A DNA stretch of 64,000 nucleotides from Escherichia coli (GCF_003334255.1 NZ_QOWU01000013.1); one strand, 5' to 3'; positions 28,176-43,484 are shown, numbered from the stretch's first letter. Notes: generated by a model not told the origin, from the sequence alone. Numbers and translations are program-made.

Positions 28176-30326
28176 ATGGATACTAAAAAGATATTCAAGC
28201 ACATACCCTGGGTGATTCTCGGAATCATCGGTGCATTCTGCCTCGCGGTAGTTGCATTACGTCGGGGGGAGCACATCAGCGCCCTGTGGATCGTGGTCGC
28301 CTCTGTATCGGTGTATCTGGTGGCGTATCGCTACTACAGTCTGTACATCGCCCAGAAGGTGATGAAACTCGACCCCACGCGCGCGACGCCTGCGGTTATT
28401 AACAACGACGGTCTGAACTACGTTCCGACCAACCGTTACGTGTTGTTTGGTCACCACTTCGCCGCTATCGCCGGTGCTGGTCCGCTGGTGGGTCCGGTTC
28501 TCGCCGCGCAGATGGGCTACCTGCCTGGCACGCTGTGGCTGCTGGCGGGGGTCGTGCTGGCCGGTGCGGTTCAGGACTTTATGGTGCTGTTTATCTCCTC
28601 TCGCCGTAATGGCGCATCTCTTGGTGAGATGATCAAAGAAGAGATGGGACCAGTACCGGGGACTATCGCGCTGTTTGGCTGTTTCTTAATCATGATCATC
28701 ATCCTCGCCGTCCTGGCGCTGATTGTGGTTAAAGCCCTGGCCGAAAGTCCGTGGGGTGTCTTCACCGTTTGCTCAACCGTACCGATTGCGCTGTTTATGG
28801 GTATCTACATGCGCTTTATTCGTCCGGGGCGTGTGGGTGAAGTCTCTGTCATTGGTATCGTGCTGCTGGTTGCCTCTATCTACTTCGGTGGCGTGATTGC
28901 TCACGATCCGTACTGGGGTCCGGCACTGACCTTTAAAGACACCACCATTACCTTCGCGCTGATTGGCTATGCGTTTGTTTCCGCACTGCTGCCAGTGTGG
29001 CTGATCCTCGCACCGCGCGACTATCTGGCAACCTTCCTGAAAATCGGCGTTATCGTCGGCCTGGCGCTGGGTATCGTGGTGCTGAACCCGGAACTGAAAA
29101 TGCCTGCCATGACCCAGTACATTGACGGTACTGGCCCGCTGTGGAAAGGCGCTCTGTTCCCGTTCCTGTTCATCACCATCGCCTGTGGTGCGGTATCTGG
29201 CTTCCACGCGCTGATCTCTTCCGGTACGACGCCAAAACTGCTGGCTAATGAAACCGACGCGCGTTTCATCGGCTACGGCGCAATGCTGATGGAGTCCTTC
29301 GTGGCGATTATGGCGCTGGTTGCTGCGTCCATCATCGAACCGGGTCTTTACTTCGCGATGAACACCCCGCCTGCTGGCCTTGGCATCACCATGCCTAACC
29401 TGCATGAAATGGGTGGCGAGAACGCGCCGATCATCATGGCGCAGCTGAAAGACGTTACCGCACACGCGGCAGCGACCGTCAGCTCCTGGGGCTTCGTGAT
29501 TTCGCCAGGGCAGATCCTGCAAACCGCGAAAGACATTGGTGAGCCTTCTGTCCTGAACCGTGCAGGTGGCGCGCCGACGCTGGCGGTAGGTATCGCGCAC
29601 GTGTTCCACAAAGTGCTGCCGATGGCTGACATGGGCTTCTGGTATCACTTCGGTATTCTGTTCGAAGCCCTGTTCATCCTGACCGCGCTGGATGCGGGTA
29701 CCCGTTCTGGCCGCTTTATGCTGCAAGACCTGCTGGGTAACTTTATCCCGTTCCTGAAAAAAACCGACTCTCTGGTTGCCGGTATCATTGGTACTGCGGG
29801 CTGTGTGGGTCTGTGGGGCTACCTGCTGTATCAGGGCGTGGTCGATCCGCTGGGCGGCGTTAAGAGCCTGTGGCCGCTGTTCGGTATCTCCAACCAGATG
29901 CTGGCAGCCGTAGCGCTGGTACTGGGCACCGTTGTGCTGATTAAGATGAAGCGCACCCAATACATCTGGGTAACTGTTGTTCCGGCTGTATGGCTGCTTA
30001 TCTGCACCACCTGGGCGCTGGGCCTGAAACTGTTCAGCACCAACCCGCAGATGGAAGGCTTCTTCTACATGGCAAGCCAGTACAAAGAGAAGATTGCTAA
30101 CGGTACTGACCTGACGGCGCAGCAGATTGCCAATATGAACCACATCGTTGTGAACAACTACACCAACGCAGGTCTGAGTATTCTGTTCCTGATTGTGGTG
30201 TACAGCATCATCTTCTACGGTTTCAAAACCTGGCTTGCGGTGCGTAACAGCGACAAACGTACTGACAAAGAAACACCGTACGTTCCAATCCCGGAAGGCG
30301 GCGTGAAGATCTCTTCGCACCACTAA
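28176..30326 (+). CDS. btsT: Pyruvate/H+ symporter (CstA family)
   Basis: 716 aa from the ATG at 28176 (MDTKKIFKHIPWVILGIIGAF); polytopic membrane protein. Confidence 0.9.
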   Translation: MDTKKIFKHIPWVILGIIGAFCLAVVALRRGEHISALWIVVASVSVYLVAYRYYSLYIAQKVMKLDPTRATPAVINNDGLNYVPTNRYVLFGHHFAAIAGAGPLVGPVLAAQMGYLPGTLWLLAGVVLAGAVQDFMVLFISSRRNGASLGEMIKEEMGPVPGTIALFGCFLIMIIILAVLALIVVKALAESPWGVFTVCSTVPIALFMGIYMRFIRPGRVGEVSVIGIVLLVASIYFGGVIAHDPYWGPALTFKDTTITFALIGYAFVSALLPVWLILAPRDYLATFLKIGVIVGLALGIVVLNPELKMPAMTQYIDGTGPLWKGALFPFLFITIACGAVSGFHALISSGTTPKLLANETDARFIGYGAMLMESFVAIMALVAASIIEPGLYFAMNTPPAGLGITMPNLHEMGGENAPIIMAQLKDVTAHAAATVSSWGFVISPGQILQTAKDIGEPSVLNRAGGAPTLAVGIAHVFHKVLPMADMGFWYHFGILFEALFILTALDAGTRSGRFMLQDLLGNFIPFLKKTDSLVAGIIGTAGCVGLWGYLLYQGVVDPLGGVKSLWPLFGISNQMLAAVALVLGTVVLIKMKRTQYIWVTVVPAVWLLICTTWALGLKLFSTNPQMEGFFYMASQYKEKIANGTDLTAQQIANMNHIVVNNYTNAGLSILFLIVVYSIIFYGFKTWLAVRNSDKRTDKETPYVPIPEGGVKISSHH

Positions 30327-31546: not shown

Positions 31547-31564
31547 TTTTGGATGATGGATGAT

Positions 31565-31597
31565 GGCCGCCATGTGGCGGCCTGAATTATTTTTTGT
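31565..31597 (+). terminator. Hairpin/terminator after yjiA (convergent with brnA)
   Basis: ggccgcc-atgt-ggcggcc hairpin followed by TGAATTATTTTTTG. Confidence 0.5.
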
Positions 31598-31889
31598 TCT
31601 GATCGCGCAGCATCGCTTCACGTAAAATTGCGTTCAGGCGAGTTTGATAGCCTTTACCAGGTCGCTTCAGCCATTCCATCACATCAGCATCAATACGCAC
31701 CGAAGCCTGGGTTTTCAATGGCCGATAAAACTTACCGCGTTCTGCGTTAGACCATTGCTCATCGCTGGAAGGTGGGATATCGCTGTAATCAATCTCTTCG
31801 TCGGATTTATTCGCCAGCGCCTTCAATTCGGCCTCATGCTGCACATCGAGTGTAGAGGAGGTCCCTCGTTTATGTTTAACCATGCTCAT
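31587..31889 (-). CDS. BrnA-like antitoxin (type II TA)
   Basis: About 100 aa from the ATG at 31889 (MSMVKHKRGTSSTLDVQHEAELKALANKSDEEIDYSDIPP...), GGAG ribosome-binding site 5 nt upstream; overlaps the toxin 3' end by 14 nt. Family assigned by resemblance, not alignment. Confidence 0.65.
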   Translation of the reverse strand: MSMVKHKRGTSSTLDVQHEAELKALANKSDEEIDYSDIPPSSDEQWSNAERGKFYRPLKTQASVRIDADVMEWLKRPGKGYQTRLNAILREAMLRDQNKK

Positions 31890-32163
31890 AGCGACTCCTC
31901 TCTTTACGATCTGCTTTTCGTGCACTGATGATTCGAATAATTTCATTTCCGCTTTCGAAACGGATGGTATGCGCAACCAGAATAACCACGATACCGTGAA
32001 CCACGCCGATAGTCTGCCAGCGATACTCACCGTTTTCTATGCGATCTTGCTGTGACAAATGTTGTGGATCATCAAACACCAACACCGCATCTTCAAAGCG
32101 GATGCCATGTTTCACCCGATTACTTTTGGCCTTGTTTGCATCCCATTCAAACTCCATTGGCAT
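31876..32163 (-). CDS. BrnT-like toxin (DUF497 ribonuclease family, type II TA)
   Basis: About 95 aa from the ATG at 32163 (MPMEFEWDANKAKSNRVKHGIRFEDAVLVFDDP...); toxin-first order with overlapping antitoxin, as in BrnT/BrnA modules. Confidence 0.65.
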   Translation of the reverse strand: MPMEFEWDANKAKSNRVKHGIRFEDAVLVFDDPQHLSQQDRIENGEYRWQTIGVVHGIVVILVAHTIRFESGNEIIRIISARKADRKERSRYEHG

Positions 32164-32178
32164 AGTTGCCATCCCTAA

Positions 32179-32190
32179 TTGTATATACAA
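32179..32190. promoter_or_regulatory. Perfect 12-bp palindrome upstream of brnT (candidate autoregulatory operator)
   Basis: ttgtatatacaa, 16 nt upstream of the brnT start codon within an AT-rich region. Confidence 0.35.
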
Positions 32191-32359
32191 AAATGTATCT
32201 ACAATTATTCTGCAATTATAGCGTTGATGTTGGAAATAGCATCACGTTTTGGATAATCAACCATGAAATTGACAATGAGTAAGTTGGACTTGATTCATCC
32301 AATAGAATTTCTCGCCTGACATGGCACACTAAACACCTCGCTGTCGTTAAGGGATTACC

Positions 32360-33526
32360 GTGAAAAACTATAAAGTTATTACCCCGCTTTTTCCTACCTA
32401 TGCACAGGTTAAAGCTATGATGAAAGCCGTCTCAGGCTATTCCCTGAAAGCGGTACGCAATATGATTACCGCCATTCACGAGCAAACCGGTACGCCGCAA
32501 AAACCCGTTGACTGGTCGGAACCCGACCTGTGGATCAGCGAGCGCTTAACGGGTGAAGATGCCGACATCGCCCGTCGTATTTGGGATACCGATAATCACA
32601 TCTTGAACCCGCGCCACAGCTACGGCTGCTACTTATTCCTCAACTATCCCCAGTTTGATCTGATGGAAAGCACACCAGATGATACCTGGCAGCCCACCTC
32701 GCACGGGCAAAAATTCCTGCAAGATGACGAAAAAACGCTGCGTTCACTGGACGATCAGGAAGGCATTCTGCAACTTCTTGAACTATTAGCTGGCCGCGAA
32801 ATGTCGCGCCGCGCCGATTTATTGCCGGAATGGCAGGCCTTTTTGCATCAGCATTCGAAATTCGCGTCTGCAAGTTCAGTGAAAAGCACGCTCTACTCCC
32901 GTCTCTATAACCTTATCGACCGTGACATGGTTAACCGTGAAGGCATGAGCTATCGCATCACCGATACCGGGCGCGCCTGACTTGGAAAAGCGTTACCTGC
33001 ACGAAAAAGCGATCCGCGTAAAGAGCTGTTGGAAGCGGTAAAACGCTATAACGAACAGCAAAAAGAGCTGCTGCGCGAACAAATCAGCACGATGAACCCG
33101 TACAAATTTGAACAACTGGTCGGTCAATTACTGGAAGCAATGGGCTACGAGCAGGTCGAAGTGACCAAAGCCTCTGGCGATAAAGGCGTGGACGTGATTG
33201 GTCAGGTGCAGGTCGGCATCACCACCATTACAGAAGTGGTGCAGGTCAAAAGAATGCAGAACACTATCACTCGCCCGTATATCGACCAGTTGCGCGGGGC
33301 GTTGCCTTACCACAAAGCCATTCGCGGTACGCTCATCACCACCGGGAAATTTGCGGCGAAATGTGCAGAAGCGGCGCTCTTTCCGGGTGCCGCGCCCATT
33401 ACGCTTATCGACGGCGATCGTTTACTGGAACTGTTAATCGAAAATAACGTCGGCATTCGCCGCAGCAATGCAGTGGAATTGCTGGATGTAGATTTGCAGT
33501 TGTTTGATGAGCTGGAGATGGATTAA
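32360..33526 (+). pseudogene. Mrr-family restriction endonuclease gene interrupted by an in-frame TGA
   Basis: One reading frame from the GTG at 32360 to 33526, broken only by TGA at 32978-32980; the C-terminal part (...GDKGVDVIGQVQ...VQVKRMQNTITRPYIDQL...TTGKF...) is a typical Mrr catalytic domain, and translation across the stop reads as a continuous linker. Confidence 0.65.
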
Positions 33527-33589
33527 AGGGCGAAATCCGCCGCCTCAACCATTACAATAGCGACCCAATTTATCTGAACAGAGTTCATC

Positions 33590-35198
<1,609 letters not shown>

Positions 35199-35209
<11 letters not shown>

Positions 35210-36590
35210 TGGCTTCAAGTTACCTCTAGGATGGAATTGTAAAAAACTGGTTGATTGTACAAAGGAGGGAAATATCTCTTATGGTATTGTTCAACCAGGT
35301 CAGCATCAAGAAGATGGCATTGGTATTATTCGTGTAAATAATATACAAAATGGAAATATTTACATAGACGATGTTCTGAAGGTTTCTCATGAAATAGAAA
35401 GTAAATTTGCCAAAACTAGGTTAGAAGGAGGAGAAGTACTTTTAACACTAGTGGGTTCCACTGGAATTAGCGCCATTACAACTAAAGCACTACAGGGATG
35501 GAATGTTGCTCGTGCCGTAGCCGTAATTAAGCCATGCGATGAAATAAGTGCAGAGTGGATACATATTTGCCTCCAATCACCTTTTACAAAATATTTTTTG
35601 GATTCCAGAGCTAATACTACTGTTCAGAAAACTCTCAATCTCAAAGACGTGAAAGAAATTCCATTACCAATTCCTCCACATGAGGAAAGAGTAAGTCTTG
35701 AGAAAATTTACTTCAATTTTGAGAATAGAATAAACTTAAATATAAAAATTAATAAAATCCTAGAAGAAATGTCACAAAACCTGTTCAAATCCTGGTTTGT
35801 AGATTTTGATCCGGTGGTTGATAACGCTCTGGATGCAGGAAACCCAATTCCGGAAGCCCTGCAATCTCGCGCCGAATTGCGTCAAAAAGTACGTAATAGT
35901 GCAGATTTTAAACCGCTTCCGGCGGAAATCCGCTCGCTTTTCCCAAGTGAATTTGAAGAAACGGAGTTGGGTTGGATGCCAAAGGGATGGCAAATTAAAT
36001 CATTAGATCATATTGCTAATTTCCAGAATGGTTTGGCTTTACAAAAATTTAGGCCGAAGAATATGGAGGATGATTATTTACCTGTATTAAAAATAGCAGA
36101 TCTCCGAGCAGGACAAATAACTAATGACGAACGAGCAAGAACTGATATTTCTGATAGTTGTAAGGTGTATGACGGCGATATGATTTTCTCATGGTCGGGG
36201 ACTTTGATGATCGATATTTGGACTGGTGGGAATGCTGCATTAAATCAGCATTTATATAAGGTCACATCAAAAAAATACCCACAATCTTTTTATTTTATGT
36301 GGACAATACAGCATCTTTCAAGATTTCAACATATTGCAGAGGCAAAAGCGGTAACAATGGGGCACATCAAAAAAGGAGATTTAAGTAACTCTTTCTGTCT
36401 AATTCCTACTTCATCGTTGATTACTAAATATGATAATATCGTTGGAGGATATTTAGCGAAGATTAAAAATCAAAGATTGTTAAATAACCAAATGACCGCC
36501 CTACGCGACACCCTGCTCCCGAAACTCATCTCCGGCGAGCTATCCCTGGACGATATTCCGGATCTCAACACCGATACAGAAGCTGCATAA
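35199..36590 (+). CDS. hsdS: Type I restriction-modification specificity subunit HsdS
   Basis: 463 aa; ATG overlaps the hsdM stop by 11 nt (GGAGGGG ribosome-binding site); two AT-rich variable regions separated by GC-richer conserved central and C-terminal segments. Confidence 0.85.
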
Positions 36591-36684
36591 CGCATTTTGC
36601 CCCTGTAAAATCAGGGGCTTTCTGGTAAGGTTTTCTACTGATACGGGAATGCTTACCAGAAATTAGCCAGGGTTGGAGCGCGAT

Positions 36685-39600
36685 ATGAGTCTCTCTTTCA
36701 GTGAAGCAAAATTAGAACAAGCGATCATTGAACTGTTACAGGATCAGGGATATCAACACCTGATCGGCGATAATGTCCCACGTTCGACTCTCGATCAGGT
36801 CATTATCGAAGACGATCTCCGTCATTATTTAGCGGCACGCTACCAGCCTGATGGCATTACTGAAGAAGAGATTCAGCGACTGATCAAACAGTTCACCACG
36901 CTTCCGGCCTCCGATCTTTATGAAAGCAACAAAACATTTTGTCGCTGGCTGGCAAATGGTTTTCTGTTCAAACGCGACGATCGGCAAAAAAAAGATCTCT
37001 ATATTGAATTGCTCGACACCCGGCATCTACCTGCCGCACTGCGCCAGATATTTGACGCTGAAGATGTCCCGTTGCAACAGGCGGCGGAACTCCCGCCCTC
37101 CTATATTAATCCGCCGCTTAACCGGATTAAGATTGTTAACCAGCTTAAAATCTCCGGTAAAGATAATCAGACTCGTATTCCTGACGGCATTCTCTATATC
37201 AACGGTCTGCCACTGGTCGTCTTTGAATTTAAAAGCGCGGTGCGCGAGCAGGAAGCCAATATAGGCGATGCCTGGAAGCAGCTCTGCAAACGCTATCGCC
37301 GGGATATTCCGCAACTGTTTATCTACAACGCGCTCTGCATTATTAGCGATGGTGTAAATAACCGGATGGGCAACCTGTTTGCGCCCTATGAATACTTTTA
37401 CTCATGGCGCAAAGTCACCGGTAATGAAAACCGTGAACAGGACGGAATTCCATCATTGCACTCAATGATTCAGGGACTGTTTCATCCGGTACGTCTGTTG
37501 GATGTGATTAAAAACTTTATCTGCTTCCCGGATAAAGCCAAGCACGAAGTAAAAATTTGCTGCCGATATCCGCAGTACTATGCCGCCCGCAAACTCTATT
37601 ACAGCATCAAGCAAGCGCGTAAACCTTTCGGTAGCGGTAAAGGCGGTACCTACTTTGGCGCAACGGGCTGCGGAAAAAGCTACACCATGCAATTTTTAAC
37701 CCGCCTGTTAATGAAAAGCGTGGAGTTTGCCAGCCCGACCATTGTTTTGATCACCGACCGTACCGATCTGGACGATCAGCTTTCTGCGCAAATGTGCAAC
37801 GCCAAAAATTACATTGGCGATGACACCATCGTTCCCGTTACCAGCCGTGAAGATTTGCGTAATCAACTGGCGGGACGCAATAGTGGCGGTGTATTCCTGA
37901 CAACGATCCATAAATTCACCGAAGACACCGAACTCCTTTCTGAACGCAGCAATATCATTTGCATCTCGGACGAAGCACATCGCAGTCAGGTTAACCTCGA
38001 CCAGAAAGTCATCGTCGATAAAGAAAGCGGAAAAGTGCGCAAAACTTATGGCTTTGCGAAATACCTGCACGATTCACTGCCAAACGCCACCTATGTTGGC
38101 TTTACCGGAACTCCGATTGACGCAACACTCGATGTCTTCGGTGAGGTGATCGACAGTTACACCATGACCGAATCCGTTCAGGATGAAATCACTGTACGCA
38201 TCGTGTACGAAGGCCGTGCGGCTAAAGTGATCCTGGACTCCAGCAAACTGGAAGAAGTCGAAAAGTATTACGAAGAGTGCGCAAACGCAGGCACCAATGA
38301 GTGGCAAATCGACGAAAGCAAAAAAGCCACCGCAACCATGAATGCGGTACTGGGTGATGAAGATCGGTTAAAAGCCCTCGCGGAAGATTTTGCCAAACAT
38401 TATGAAAAACGCGTAGCCGAAGGTTCCACCGTAAAAGGCAAAGCCATGTTTGTTTGTGCCAGCCGTGAAATTGCCTGGGATTTCTACCGCCAGCTTAAAG
38501 TTATTCGCCCTGCCTGGTTTGAAGTGAAGCAAGCCCCCGATGGCGTCGTCCTGACGGAACAGGAGCAGAAAGAGTTACCGCCTTCTGAAATGGTGAAGAT
38601 GGTCATGACGCGCGGTAAAGATGACGACGAGGCGCTTTATGATTTACTGGGCACAAAAGAATATCGCAAAGAGCTGGATAAGCAGTTCAAAAACGCTAAA
38701 TCGAATTTCAAAATTGCCATTGTTGTTGATATGTGGCTGACCGGTTTTGATGTTCCTGAACTGGATACCATCTATATTGATAAGCCCTTACAAAAACATA
38801 ACCTTATCCAGACTATTTCTCGCGTTAACCGTAAACTGGAAGGCAAAAGCAAAGGGTTAGTAGTGGACTACATCGGCATTAAGAGTCAGATGAACCAGGC
38901 ACTGGCAATGTATTCCCGCATTGATGCCACCAACTTTGAAGATATTCAGCAATCGGTAATAGAAGTTAAAAACCATCTCGATTTGTTGGGGCAAGTATTT
39001 TATGAATTCGACAGTCGGGATTATTTTAGTGGTGAGCCACAAGCGCAATTATCCTGCCTCAACCGCGCGGCGGAATTTGTTCTGCGCACTCAGAAAGTTG
39101 AACGTCGTTTTATGGGACTGGTTAAACGCATGAAAGCCGCCTACGACGTCTGCTGCGGCAGTGAAGCACTATCACAGACAGAACGTGATCATATTCACTA
39201 TTATCTTGCTGTTCGTTCAATTGTTTTCAAACTGACGAAAGGTGACGCACCGGATGTCACCCAGATGAATGCACGCGTTCGTGAAATGATTGCAGAAGCG
39301 CTAAAAGCTGATGGCGTAGAAGAAATTTATTTTCTTGGCGATAAAAAAGCGGAATCCATCGATATTTTTGACGAAGATTATCTGGCGCGAATTAACAAGA
39401 TCAAACTTCCGGCAACGAAGATCCAGTTATTACAAAAATTACTGGAAAAAGCGATCAGCGACTTCAAGAAAGTGAACCAGTTGCAAGGGATTAACTTCAC
39501 CCGCCGCTTCCAGGCGATTATAGATCGTTATAATGAGCGGCGAGAAGATGATGTACTCAACGGTGAAGAATTCGATACATTCAGTCAGGAAATGACCGAT

Positions 39601-39948
39601 ATTATCTATGATATTAAAACCGAAATGGGCACATGGGCCGATTTAGGTATTGATATTGAAGAAAAAGCGTTTTTCGACATTCTTGCTCATATGCGCGATA
39701 AATATCAGTTCACCTATGACGATGAAAAAATGCTGTCACTGGCAAAAGAGATGAAAAGCGTGGTTGACAACACATCGAAATATCCTGACTGGAGTAAACG
39801 CGATGATATTAAAGCGAAACTGAAAGTTGAACTTATTCTGCTTCTACACAAGCATAAGTTCCCGCCAGTAGCAAATGATGATGTTTATATGGGTGTGCTG
39901 GCACAGGCAGAGAATTTTAAAGAACATCATATGAGTGCTTTAAATTAA
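36685..39948 (+). CDS. hsdR: Type I restriction endonuclease subunit HsdR (helicase-nuclease)
   Basis: About 1087 aa from the ATG at 36685 (GGAG ribosome-binding site; ORF track starts at TTG 36673); Walker A GATGCGKS and DEAH box ISDEAHRSQ. Confidence 0.9.
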   Translation: MSLSFSEAKLEQAIIELLQDQGYQHLIGDNVPRSTLDQVIIEDDLRHYLAARYQPDGITEEEIQRLIKQFTTLPASDLYESNKTFCRWLANGFLFKRDDRQKKDLYIELLDTRHLPAALRQIFDAEDVPLQQAAELPPSYINPPLNRIKIVNQLKISGKDNQTRIPDGILYINGLPLVVFEFKSAVREQEANIGDAWKQLCKRYRRDIPQLFIYNALCIISDGVNNRMGNLFAPYEYFYSWRKVTGNENREQDGIPSLHSMIQGLFHPVRLLDVIKNFICFPDKAKHEVKICCRYPQYYAARKLYYSIKQARKPFGSGKGGTYFGATGCGKSYTMQFLTRLLMKSVEFASPTIVLITDRTDLDDQLSAQMCNAKNYIGDDTIVPVTSREDLRNQLAGRNSGGVFLTTIHKFTEDTELLSERSNIICISDEAHRSQVNLDQKVIVDKESGKVRKTYGFAKYLHDSLPNATYVGFTGTPIDATLDVFGEVIDSYTMTESVQDEITVRIVYEGRAAKVILDSSKLEEVEKYYEECANAGTNEWQIDESKKATATMNAVLGDEDRLKALAEDFAKHYEKRVAEGSTVKGKAMFVCASREIAWDFYRQLKVIRPAWFEVKQAPDGVVLTEQEQKELPPSEMVKMVMTRGKDDDEALYDLLGTKEYRKELDKQFKNAKSNFKIAIVVDMWLTGFDVPELDTIYIDKPLQKHNLIQTISRVNRKLEGKSKGLVVDYIGIKSQMNQALAMYSRIDATNFEDIQQSVIEVKNHLDLLGQVFYEFDSRDYFSGEPQAQLSCLNRAAEFVLRTQKVERRFMGLVKRMKAAYDVCCGSEALSQTERDHIHYYLAVRSIVFKLTKGDAPDVTQMNARVREMIAEALKADGVEEIYFLGDKKAESIDIFDEDYLARINKIKLPATKIQLLQKLLEKAISDFKKVNQLQGINFTRRFQAIIDRYNERREDDVLNGEEFDTFSQEMTDIIYDIKTEMGTWADLGIDIEEKAFFDILAHMRDKYQFTYDDEKMLSLAKEMKSVVDNTSKYPDWSKRDDIKAKLKVELILLLHKHKFPPVANDDVYMGVLAQAENFKEHHMSALN

Positions 39949-40070
39949 TTATGAAGGCCGGATACACTTTGTTATCCGGCCATTCTGAATTAACGTTAAT
40001 TTCTCTTCCAGATCTTTCCAGTAACGCTTTTATTATTTTCTATTTTTAGCTGGACTTCCCCCCATATTTA

Positions 40071-40086
40071 CTGATGATATATCCAG
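40071..40086 (+). promoter_or_regulatory. LexA box upstream of symE
   Basis: CTGATGATATATCCAG, i.e. CTG-N10-CAG with an AT-rich centre, close to the LexA consensus CTGT-N8-ACAG; about 80 bp upstream of symE. Confidence 0.55.
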
Positions 40087-40109
40087 GTATTTAGCGCGGT
40101 GCGGATGTG

Positions 40110-40190
40110 CGCCAACACACCCGCACCGCTCATCACAATCACTATTTATGGAGAATAGTAATCATGACTGACACGCATTCTATTGCACAA
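40110..40190 (-). ncRNA. symR: Candidate SymR antisense sRNA (coordinates approximate)
   Basis: Placed by established knowledge that a roughly 77-nt antisense RNA overlaps the symE 5' UTR and start; an inverted repeat gcggtgcgg...ccgcaccgc (40095-40129) lies at the predicted 3' end. Not independently detectable from sequence alone. Confidence 0.3.
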
Positions 40191-40502
40191 CCGTTCGAAC
40201 CAGAAGTCTCTCCTGCAAATAACCGTCAATTAACCGTGAGCTATGCGAGCCGCTACCCGGATTACAGCCGTATTCCCGCCATCACCCTGAAAGGTCAGTG
40301 GCTGGAAGCCGCCGGTTTTGCCACCGGCACTGTGGTAGATGTCAAAGTGATGGAAGGCTGTATTGTCCTCACCGCCCAACCACCCGCCGCCGAAGAGGGC
40401 GAACTGATGCAGTCGCTGCGCCAGGTGTGCAAACTGTCGGCGCGTAAACAAAGGCAGGTGCAGGATTTTATTGGGGTGATTAGTAGCAAAACGCCACGCT
40501 AA
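40164..40502 (+). CDS. symE: SOS-induced toxin-like protein SymE
   Basis: 112 aa from the ATG at 40164 ([52 protein letters not shown]...); LexA box upstream. Confidence 0.85.
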
Positions 40503-40543
40503 GTTTCTCTCCCCTTCCCCATACGGGAAGGGAAATTGCCCCC

Positions 40544-40708
40544 TCACTCCACATCCTCCCTGCGTAACCCGATATCCCTCAACCGCTCATCACTCATCTG
40601 CTGTAACACCCGCCGGGCCTGCATTTGCCGCCGCCAACGCCTCACCGCCTGCCAGAGTTGCACGAAGCCGATAAACGGCGCGTTGGCTTTGTTTTCGTGA
40701 AATTCCAT
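40544..40708 (-). CDS. yjiS: Small DUF1127-family protein
   Basis: 54-aa ORF absent from the ORF track (below its length cutoff): MEFHENKANAPFIGFVQLWQAVRRWRRQMQARRVLQQMSDERLRDIGLRREDVE, with GAGGAGG ribosome-binding site 6 nt upstream; divergent from yjiR. Confidence 0.75.
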   Translation of the reverse strand: MEFHENKANAPFIGFVQLWQAVRRWRRQMQARRVLQQMSDERLRDIGLRREDVE

Positions 40709-42539: not shown

Positions 42540-43484
42540 TTAGTACTCGATCCATGGATCGCGCTTGCTTTCAGGCAAGGGTTGCTCTAATGCCTGCATT
42601 TGCTCTGCCGAAAGTCCGGTAATCTTTTGTATCCATTCAGGATCTGCCCCATTCTGCAACAACAATCGGAGGAGGTGCTGTTCCCCTTCTTCTTTCCCTT
42701 TTTCCATCCCCAACAGCCATCCATCATTATAAATTCGCTCTGCAATCGTCATTATTCGCTCCCTGTGTTGTGGCATTCGACGGGTAAGTTCGCTGATAAA
42801 CTTCTTAAAACGCGCTTCATCGCCAGTCAGTAAAATGTAATTTAACAGCGCGGTTATCTGGCTGTCATTAGCACACTCTGTAACCAGTAATAGTACCAGT
42901 TGATCGATAAGCCCCATCAGATCGCGCTGGCGAATATGCTTTTGGATCAACTCCAACAGGGCGACTCTGCGATGCTGCACAATCTCGTCGTCTGGCACGA
43001 CAGTGACATCCACCAGCGGGAACGCTGCGGTATAAAGCTTCCGTGCGGTGGTCGGGTCAGCAAATTCGTCCAGCCAGCACAGGGACCAGGGATAAGGACT
43101 ACGGCTACCGTGATAAAACAGCATCGGGATGACCAGCGGTAGCGGCCGGCGTTTATCATGCTCGATATGGCGCTGCATCACCGCCATGGAATATCGCATC
43201 AGGCGAAAGGCCATATGGATATCCTCGCGGCTCTGATGTTCAATCACCACATAAATATAGCCATCGCCTTCGCGGGTCTTTACCGACCACAGAATATCGG
43301 AATGTAGCGCCCGCAATTTTTCATCGACAAAGCTGGCGGATTCCAGTTTTAAGCTGTCGAGATCGCACAGTTCACGTAAATCTTTGGGTAAGTGGATCTC
43401 CATAAAATCCCGCGCGGTGTCAGGGTGCGTGAGAAAGGATTTAAATAATGCGTCATGCGGCGTGCTGGTTGTGAAGTTTGTCAT
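42540..43484 (-). CDS. rpnD: Rpn-family recombination-promoting nuclease (transposase_31-like), intact
   Basis: 314 aa ([36 protein letters not shown]...) typical of Rpn/YhgA-like proteins; corresponds to the locus recalled as split into yjiP/yjiQ in K-12. Confidence 0.8.

Follow-up and report, generated by a model that had tools for sequence, protein, structure and literature searches.

A probable Type ID haplotype of the immigration control region with an interrupted Mrr-like gene between yjiA and yjiS of Escherichia coli

A 2025 review lists Type ID restriction-modification systems, Mrr and brnAT among the standard residents of the enterobacterial immigration control region, and describes Type ID as one of three Type I families at this locus, found at 12% of Enterobacteriaceae loci. 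Of 9,040 complete Enterobacteriaceae genomes surveyed, 8,424 had a recognisable region, and none was found to carry a Type IC system in it. A closely related described system is EcoMII of the E. coli sequence type 131 (ST131) strain EC958, an hsdM-hsdS-hsdR operon with an adjacent 'Mrr' gene. Its knockout removes N6-methyladenine (m6A) at AAC(N4)CTTT, and its HsdR is 92% identical to the HsdR of StySBLI, the Type ID prototype (Forde 2015, PMC4659465). Here we analysed a 64,000-nucleotide stretch of E. coli DNA (GCF_003334255.1, NZ_QOWU01000013.1; hereafter the window), in which positions 31547-40543, between yjiA and yjiS, had been singled out by an initial annotation as a variant of this region. 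We established the gene content, intactness, sequence-based family assignment and population distribution of the interval. Very probably it represents the Type ID haplotype of the immigration control region of enterobacteria, where defence genes between yjiA and yjiS form an exchangeable cassette. Gene for gene, the arrangement is not new: it is a common, published haplotype that is correctly annotated in RefSeq. The special character implied by the initial annotation was therefore not upheld, and its statement that each component comes from a known family was correct.

From yjiA to yjiS, the interval contains brnA/brnT (minus strand), an Mrr-like gene, hsdM-hsdS-hsdR (plus strand) and SymR/symE, followed by yjiS (minus strand; Table 1). 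The three Type I genes are co-directional and in the order M-S-R, as initially annotated, and the suggestion of an allelic family other than Type IA was borne out as well. HsdM and HsdR of the window are each 99.3% identical to their EcoMII counterparts, and HsdS is just 36% identical. Because EcoMII HsdR is so similar to that of StySBLI, the window system is a predicted member of the Type ID family, allelic at the yjiA-yjiS locus. The identity of roughly 80-90% or more that HsdR and HsdM should share with Type ID members is reached indirectly, via EcoMII. The genes also occupy the position allelic to Type IA and Type IB hsd genes, between the yjiA stop codon (31546) and yjiS, and HsdS has conserved central and C-terminal regions around two variable target-recognition domains (TRDs). 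It weighs against this assignment that the identity between the window and StySBLI is chained through the published EcoMII figure and is not a direct alignment. The 90%-identity clusters of HsdR and HsdM take in members from Salmonella, Klebsiella, Citrobacter and Enterobacter.

The other Type I families were considered and rejected. For Type IA (EcoKI/EcoBI), the window HsdM is 24% identical to EcoKI HsdM by tblastn (phmmer E 3e-18), and EcoKI HsdR as a query gave no tblastn match at E 1e-3 in the window. For Type IB (EcoAI/EcoEI), the HsdR C-terminus matches T1RH-like_C and not EcoEI_R_C in Pfam, and the gene order is M-S-R, not R-M-S, a comparison of domains and gene order and not a direct alignment to EcoAI. 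Type IC (EcoR124I) gave only distant phmmer matches, with E 1e-38 for HsdM and E 4e-24 for HsdR. A family that is new or other than ID, such as a chromosomal relative of Type IC, would account for the M-S-R order, which is that of EcoR124I, and for an HsdM that lies nearer by phmmer to EcoR124II M than to EcoKI M. However, the HsdR match to EcoR124 is weak and confined to the motor region (residues 144-511), HsdM and HsdR are near-identical to those of EcoMII, with its link to StySBLI, and the Enterobacteriaceae survey found no Type IC in the region, all of which makes such a family extremely improbable and favours Type ID.

The boundaries of the cassette were defined by comparison with K-12. 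Homology to K-12 breaks off exactly at the yjiA stop codon (31546), is back at 40032-40481 (symR/symE, 93%) and resumes again from 40539, so that the interval picked out initially is exactly the variable cassette. Its left edge is marked by a GC-rich hairpin between the convergent ends of yjiA and brnA, which is likely a bidirectional terminator. Every feature coordinate of the initial annotation was confirmed from the open reading frame (ORF) listing and the sequence. Across 21.4 kb, the E. coli type strain ATCC 11775 differs from the window by three single-nucleotide polymorphisms (SNPs) and one homopolymer indel, at positions 29509, 32995, 40058 and 42676 only; the indel is an extra C in the C-run upstream of symE. 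The SNP at 32995 is synonymous and lies inside the Mrr-like pseudogene, and the exact 61-mer around it had no match among the complete genomes of the collection. S88, E110019 and about 30 further complete genomes are near-identical to the region. On ATCC 11775, RefSeq calls BrnA, BrnT, 'restriction endonuclease (internal stop)', subunits M, S and R, symE and yjiS, which are the same calls as ours.

The yjiA-yjiS interval was then compared across a set of 5426 complete E. coli genomes, which placed this cassette type in about 880 of them. The Mrr-like gene is carried by 880 genomes, about one in six, and at least 80% of the interval is held by 789. In strains 4433 and EC958 of the pandemic clone ST131, the genes come in the same order and the Mrr-like gene is uninterrupted. 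About 1100 complete genomes match only 47 bp (32300-32346) of the spacer between brnT and the Mrr-like gene. In the one such genome examined, NZ_CP026935.2 (8288-9759), an IS1 remnant and then mdtM come after yjiA-brnA-brnT; an IS1-associated deletion has taken out the Mrr-like gene, hsdMSR, symE, yjiS, yjiR and rpn. The cassette is a textbook case of cassette-like variation at the immigration control region and carries little weight as a discovery.

The window HsdS shares 36-40% identity with the HsdS of three further Type ID alleles. The two TRDs are unique to the window allele, and the window protein is almost the same as the three others in the centre (about residues 190-255) and at the C-terminus. 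The allele is full length in 31 genomes, with one further copy interrupted by IS1, and about 865 genomes share the conserved parts of hsdS, with about 860 matching in those parts only. Some genomes have the first ~57% of the gene alone (TRD1 and the centre, 98-99.9% identity), and some the last ~61% alone (the centre and TRD2, 97.6% identity). At the level of sequence, this half-gene sharing is direct evidence for reassortment of TRDs within Type ID via the conserved central region.

Since the window and EcoMII HsdS proteins are so dissimilar, the specificity of the window allele is expected to differ from that of the ST131 allele. In UniRef100, the window HsdS falls in the cluster of Q9ZEK7_ECOLX, 'HsdS protein', an old entry that we suspect to be the HsdS of EcoR9I, an enzyme with the site AGCA(N6)TGA. 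Against EcoBI, identity is 36% (E 5e-24) between TRD1 and the TRD reading TGCT, and 24% (E 4e-11) between TRD2 and the TRD reading TGA. The central spacer is as long as that of EcoMII, and the EcoMII site AAC(N4)CTTT is compatible with the 6-bp separation of target adenines that characterises Type ID. The site of the window allele is probably AGCA(N6)TGA, as for EcoR9I, which we treat as a lead and not as a result. Several points weigh against it. The link between Q9ZEK7 and EcoR9I goes back to the age of the accession and the family. Furthermore, EcoKI and EcoMII both read AAC with no detectable HsdS similarity, so that the EcoBI-based prediction can be no stronger than suggestive, and literature searches found no methylome or restriction data for strains with the window hsdS allele. 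The two strands of the window together contain 15 copies of AGCA(N6)TGA, versus about 8 expected from length alone with base composition ignored, and no conclusion was drawn from this count.

The Mrr-like gene had been described initially as a broken Mrr-family nuclease, and this was supported. Both halves lie in one frame, in which a single in-frame TGA at 32978-32980 replaces TGG (Trp207), the codon present in intact orthologs of ST131 and others. An Mrr_cat domain, a C-terminal nuclease domain of the PD-QxK type, was found by Pfam at residues 243-359 (E 3.8e-29), and D278, Q295 and K297 of the D..QxK motif are invariant in 26 homologs, as expected of an Mrr-type catalytic domain. The reading frame itself is not intact, and RefSeq lists the gene as a pseudogene. 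There was no Pfam match to Mrr_N, the N-terminal domain of EcoKMrr, and no significant Pfam match of any kind in the ~240-aa N-terminal region. The match of the intact ortholog to PDC-S02, a PADLOC candidate, spans the entire protein (E 7.7e-207). An AlphaFold model, with a mean predicted local distance difference test (pLDDT) score of 83, has two confident, helical N-terminal domains predicted to be winged-helix-like. A fold search with this model returned the nuclease domains of MspJI, AspBHI and FokI together with winged-helix proteins, which are generic PD-(D/E)xK/winged-helix matches only. A profile search of the family against PDB sequences gave no match, NCBIfam contained no model matching BrnT, BrnA or the Mrr-like halves, and no experimental test of the PDC-S02/Mrr-like family was found.

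The exact 61-mer bearing the TGA is present in 34 genomes. Because this set includes all 32 genomes with the window hsdS allele, the TGA is a linked, hitchhiking mutation of one cassette lineage; the remaining two genomes are B-1109 and EC21Z-063, the latter with a recombinant hsdS. Independent frameshift truncations in other lineages lie near residues 217, 236 and 238 (46, 133 and 3 member sequences, respectively), those near 236 and 238 at the A5 run in ...NEQQKE.... With no fewer than three further truncating lesions of separate origin in public sequences, the pattern indicates that decay of the Mrr-like gene is recurrent and ordinary. A loss specific to the window hsdS allele was also considered, and was weakened by the two TGA genomes with a different or recombinant hsdS and by the frameshifts elsewhere.

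The gene might still be alive, either by near-cognate reading of the UGA by tRNA-Trp, which would restore Trp207 and yield a low level of wild-type enzyme, or by production of the C-terminal half from a TTG at 33029. A single TGG to TGA change, with C as the next base, is all that interrupts the frame, and UGA followed by C is reportedly a weak signal for termination in E. coli. Past the stop, the catalytic D..QxK residues have not changed, and the differences to the ST131 ortholog comprise 36 synonymous and 8 non-synonymous codons. However, this divergence is mostly older than the stop and gives little information on later selection, the frameshifts of other lineages point to recurrent decay, and RefSeq treats the gene as a pseudogene. 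Residual activity is thus very unlikely, and a hitchhiking pseudogene is the preferred reading.

The neighbourhoods of eight distant Mrr-like homologs (50-65% identity; Halomonadaceae, Thiocystis, Serratia and metagenomes) were also inspected. Five are beside or inside Type I operons of differing families, with one between hsdR and hsdM, one comes after a BREX cluster, and two have no defence neighbours. A Kushneria operon with an Mrr-like homolog has a TIR-domain gene between hsdS and hsdM. These neighbourhoods agree with the 'guilt-by-embedding' rationale of the PADLOC phage defence candidates (bioRxiv 10.1101/2024.01.29.577857) and are not new. Since the PDC-S02 family adjoins or sits inside Type I operons of unrelated families, the Mrr-like protein could be an accessory effector acting with Type I systems and not a free-standing Type IV enzyme. 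The TGA would then perhaps have been selected because HsdS-directed methylation (approximately AGCA(N6)TGA) makes host DNA a substrate of the nuclease, or UGA-C leakage would keep a trace of the enzyme. We hold this proposal to be very doubtful.

The identification of a toxin-first BrnT/BrnA toxin-antitoxin pair on the minus strand was supported by the presence of both Pfam domains. brnT lies upstream of brnA with a 14-nt overlap, the bicistronic arrangement of BrnT/BrnA systems, and the exact BrnA sequence is found on at least 1000 contigs. Functional coupling of brnTA to the restriction genes, as an abortive-infection backup or a cassette stabiliser, would be in line with their constant adjacency in the Type ID haplotype and with the typical presence of toxin-antitoxin pairs in defence islands, brnAT being listed by the review at this region. 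It is nevertheless unlikely, as the pair is transcribed divergently from the restriction genes, and the sampled IS1-deletion genome, whose short spacer match recurs in ~1100 genomes, keeps brnTA without them. This persistence argues that brnTA is an independent module.

At the right-hand end, symE and yjiS are convergent and 41 bp apart, and the short hairpin reported between them was confirmed. It folds at -15.5 kcal/mol as plus-strand RNA and at -20.7 kcal/mol as minus-strand RNA, has no U-tract on either strand and was not listed by the terminator scan. SymR lies antisense over the 5' end of symE, as in SymE/SymR type I toxin-antitoxin systems. In K-12, symE is under SOS control, and a LexA-box-like sequence is present upstream of symE in the window. 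The reported lack of mcrBC was borne out, as K-12 McrB and McrC gave no tblastn match in the whole 64-kb window, and mcrBC is absent from a further 48 kb beyond the window on the yjiS side of ATCC 11775. About 7.6 kb of K-12 mcrBC-yjiV-yjiT is replaced by 57 bp in the window. In another Type ID haplotype, NZ_CM129852.1 (17258-19261), a GmrSD-type gene fills the slot downstream of symE; thus this region varies independently of the Type I family. An intact Rpn (YhgA-like) recombination-promoting nuclease gene (314 aa) is located at 42540-43484 on the minus strand, where K-12 has the pseudogene rpnD.

As to function, HsdM has intact DPCCGSAG and NPPF motifs. HsdR comprises the Pfam domains HSDR_N, SWI2_SNF2, T1R_D3-like and T1RH-like_C, with its nuclease motif D..EFK, Walker A (GCGKS) and DEAH box intact. 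hsdS overlaps hsdM by 11 nt, and the hairpins after hsdS and hsdR would fit the usual two transcription units, hsdM-hsdS and a separate hsdR. Because the catalytic motifs are intact and the sister ST131 allele is active, the window system should work as a standard Type I enzyme. HsdS and two HsdM subunits would methylate the adenines of a bipartite site in host DNA (M2S methylase), and the R2M2S complex would bind unmethylated sites on incoming DNA, translocate with ATP and cut at a distance. The specificity given by the window hsdS allele would be unlike that of ST131, probably AGCA(N6)TGA. An intact Mrr-like neighbour would add a second nuclease, probably modification-dependent (Type IV-like); here, this gene is a pseudogene through one TGG to TGA change travelling with the cassette. 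brnTA and symE/SymR, both regularly found in the region, would act as toxin-antitoxin modules independent of the rest, and the mcrBC slot downstream of symE is empty. The parts of this scheme that we infer are restriction itself, the site recognised, an organisation with two promoters and what the toxin-antitoxin pairs do.

The hsd genes could instead be intact but silent or restriction-deficient in this lineage, that is, methylase-only or unexpressed. One genome has IS1 in hsdS and another has IS1 near hsdM, and loss of the system is common, with more than 1000 genomes showing only the 47-bp spacer match and an IS1-associated deletion in the one examined. On the other hand, none of the three ORFs is truncated and the catalytic motifs are preserved, 100% identity is kept in at least 25 genomes with varied hosts and genome sizes, and the sister allele of ST131 methylates >99% of its sites (PMC4659465). 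A silent system is distinctly unlikely on these grounds, and we favour a working Type I enzyme.

Table 1. Features of the yjiA-yjiS interval and its right-hand anchor (positions in the window)
Feature	Position	Strand	Description and support
Hairpin GGCCGCC-ATGT-GGCGGCC	31565..31582		GC-rich, between convergent yjiA and brnA ends; terminator scan; fold -16.9 kcal/mol
brnA	31587-31889	-	Predicted antitoxin, 100 aa; Pfam BrnA_antitoxin (PF14384) E 3.1e-17; RefSeq 'BrnA antitoxin family protein'
brnT	31876-32163	-	Predicted ribonuclease toxin, 95 aa; Pfam BrnT_toxin (PF04365) E 8.2e-25; RefSeq 'BrnT family toxin'
Mrr-like gene	32360..33526	+	Endonuclease pseudogene, 388 codons; both halves in one frame
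hsdM	33590-35209	+	Predicted Type ID m6A methyltransferase subunit, 539 aa; PADLOC MTase_I E 3e-194
hsdS	35199-36590	+	Specificity subunit, 463 aa; PADLOC Specificity_I E 2e-168
Hairpin with T-rich tail after hsdS	36599..36618	+	Terminator scan, fold
hsdR	36685-39948	+	Restriction/translocase subunit, 1087 aa; TIGR00348 465 bits
Hairpin GGCCGGATA-N8-TATCCGGCC	39956..39981	+	Directly 3' of hsdR stop codon; fold -21.1 kcal/mol
LexA-box-like CTG-N10-CAG	40071..40086	+	Upstream of symE; regex match
SymR	40093..40169	-	Antisense RNA antitoxin; Rfam RF01809, 95.3 bits (gathering score 61)
symE	40164..40502	+	Predicted SOS-induced toxin, 112 aa; NCBIfam NF010128, 218 bits; 91% identical to K-12 SymE
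Hairpin CCCTTCCC-CATAC-GGGAAGGG	40512-40532		In the 41-bp symE-yjiS gap; 8-bp stem, 5-nt loop
yjiS	40544-40708	-	DUF1127, conserved right-hand anchor; 91% identical to K-12 YjiS; RefSeq

The population data illustrate three processes at this locus: TRDs are shuffled against a background of 99% constant HsdM and HsdR, the Mrr-like nuclease next to them decays repeatedly and independently, and, in the sampled genome, an IS1-associated deletion removes the restriction genes and leaves brnTA. DNA without one particular Type ID methylation pattern, probably at AGCA(N6)TGA, should be restricted by strains with this allele, among them ATCC 11775 and S88, a meningitis strain. This restriction pattern would be relevant to transformation of, or conjugation into, strains with the window allele.

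The K-12 region, mrr-hsdR-hsdM-hsdS (EcoKI, Type IA)-symE-mcrBC-yjiV-yjiT, occupies the same slot between the same anchors as the window cassette, with 98% identity for yjiA, 91% for yjiS, 99.6% for yjiR and 91% for symE. In contrast, K-12 has a different Type I family, in which HsdM is distantly related and HsdR undetectable by tblastn, and the order and orientation of its Type I genes are opposite to those in the window. brnTA is present in the window, whereas mcrBC, yjiV and yjiT are absent from it. The Mrr of K-12 (EcoKMrr) is 30% identical to the window Mrr-like protein over the C-terminal 170 aa only. A C-terminal Mrr_cat with D..QxK is common to EcoKMrr, PDC-S02 and the window protein, but the window N-terminus is unlike the Mrr_N of EcoKMrr, and the window copy is a pseudogene. 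With the founding BrnT/BrnA pair of Brucella abortus (PF04365/PF14384), the window pair shares the domains, the toxin-first order and the small, overlapping genes. StySBLI (Salmonella Blegdam), EcoR9I (E. coli ECOR9) and KpnAI are the Type ID prototypes, of the same allelic family and at the same locus, to which the window is linked via the published ST131 figure. The EcoMII locus of EC958 has the same order, yjiA, brnA-brnT, Mrr-like gene, hsdM-hsdS-hsdR, symE and yjiS, and its BrnT and BrnA are 98.9% and 97% identical to those of the window, in addition to the near-identity of HsdM and HsdR. It differs in its divergent HsdS, with the site AAC(N4)CTTT, and in the Mrr-like gene, which is intact in ST131 and nonsense-mutated in the window.

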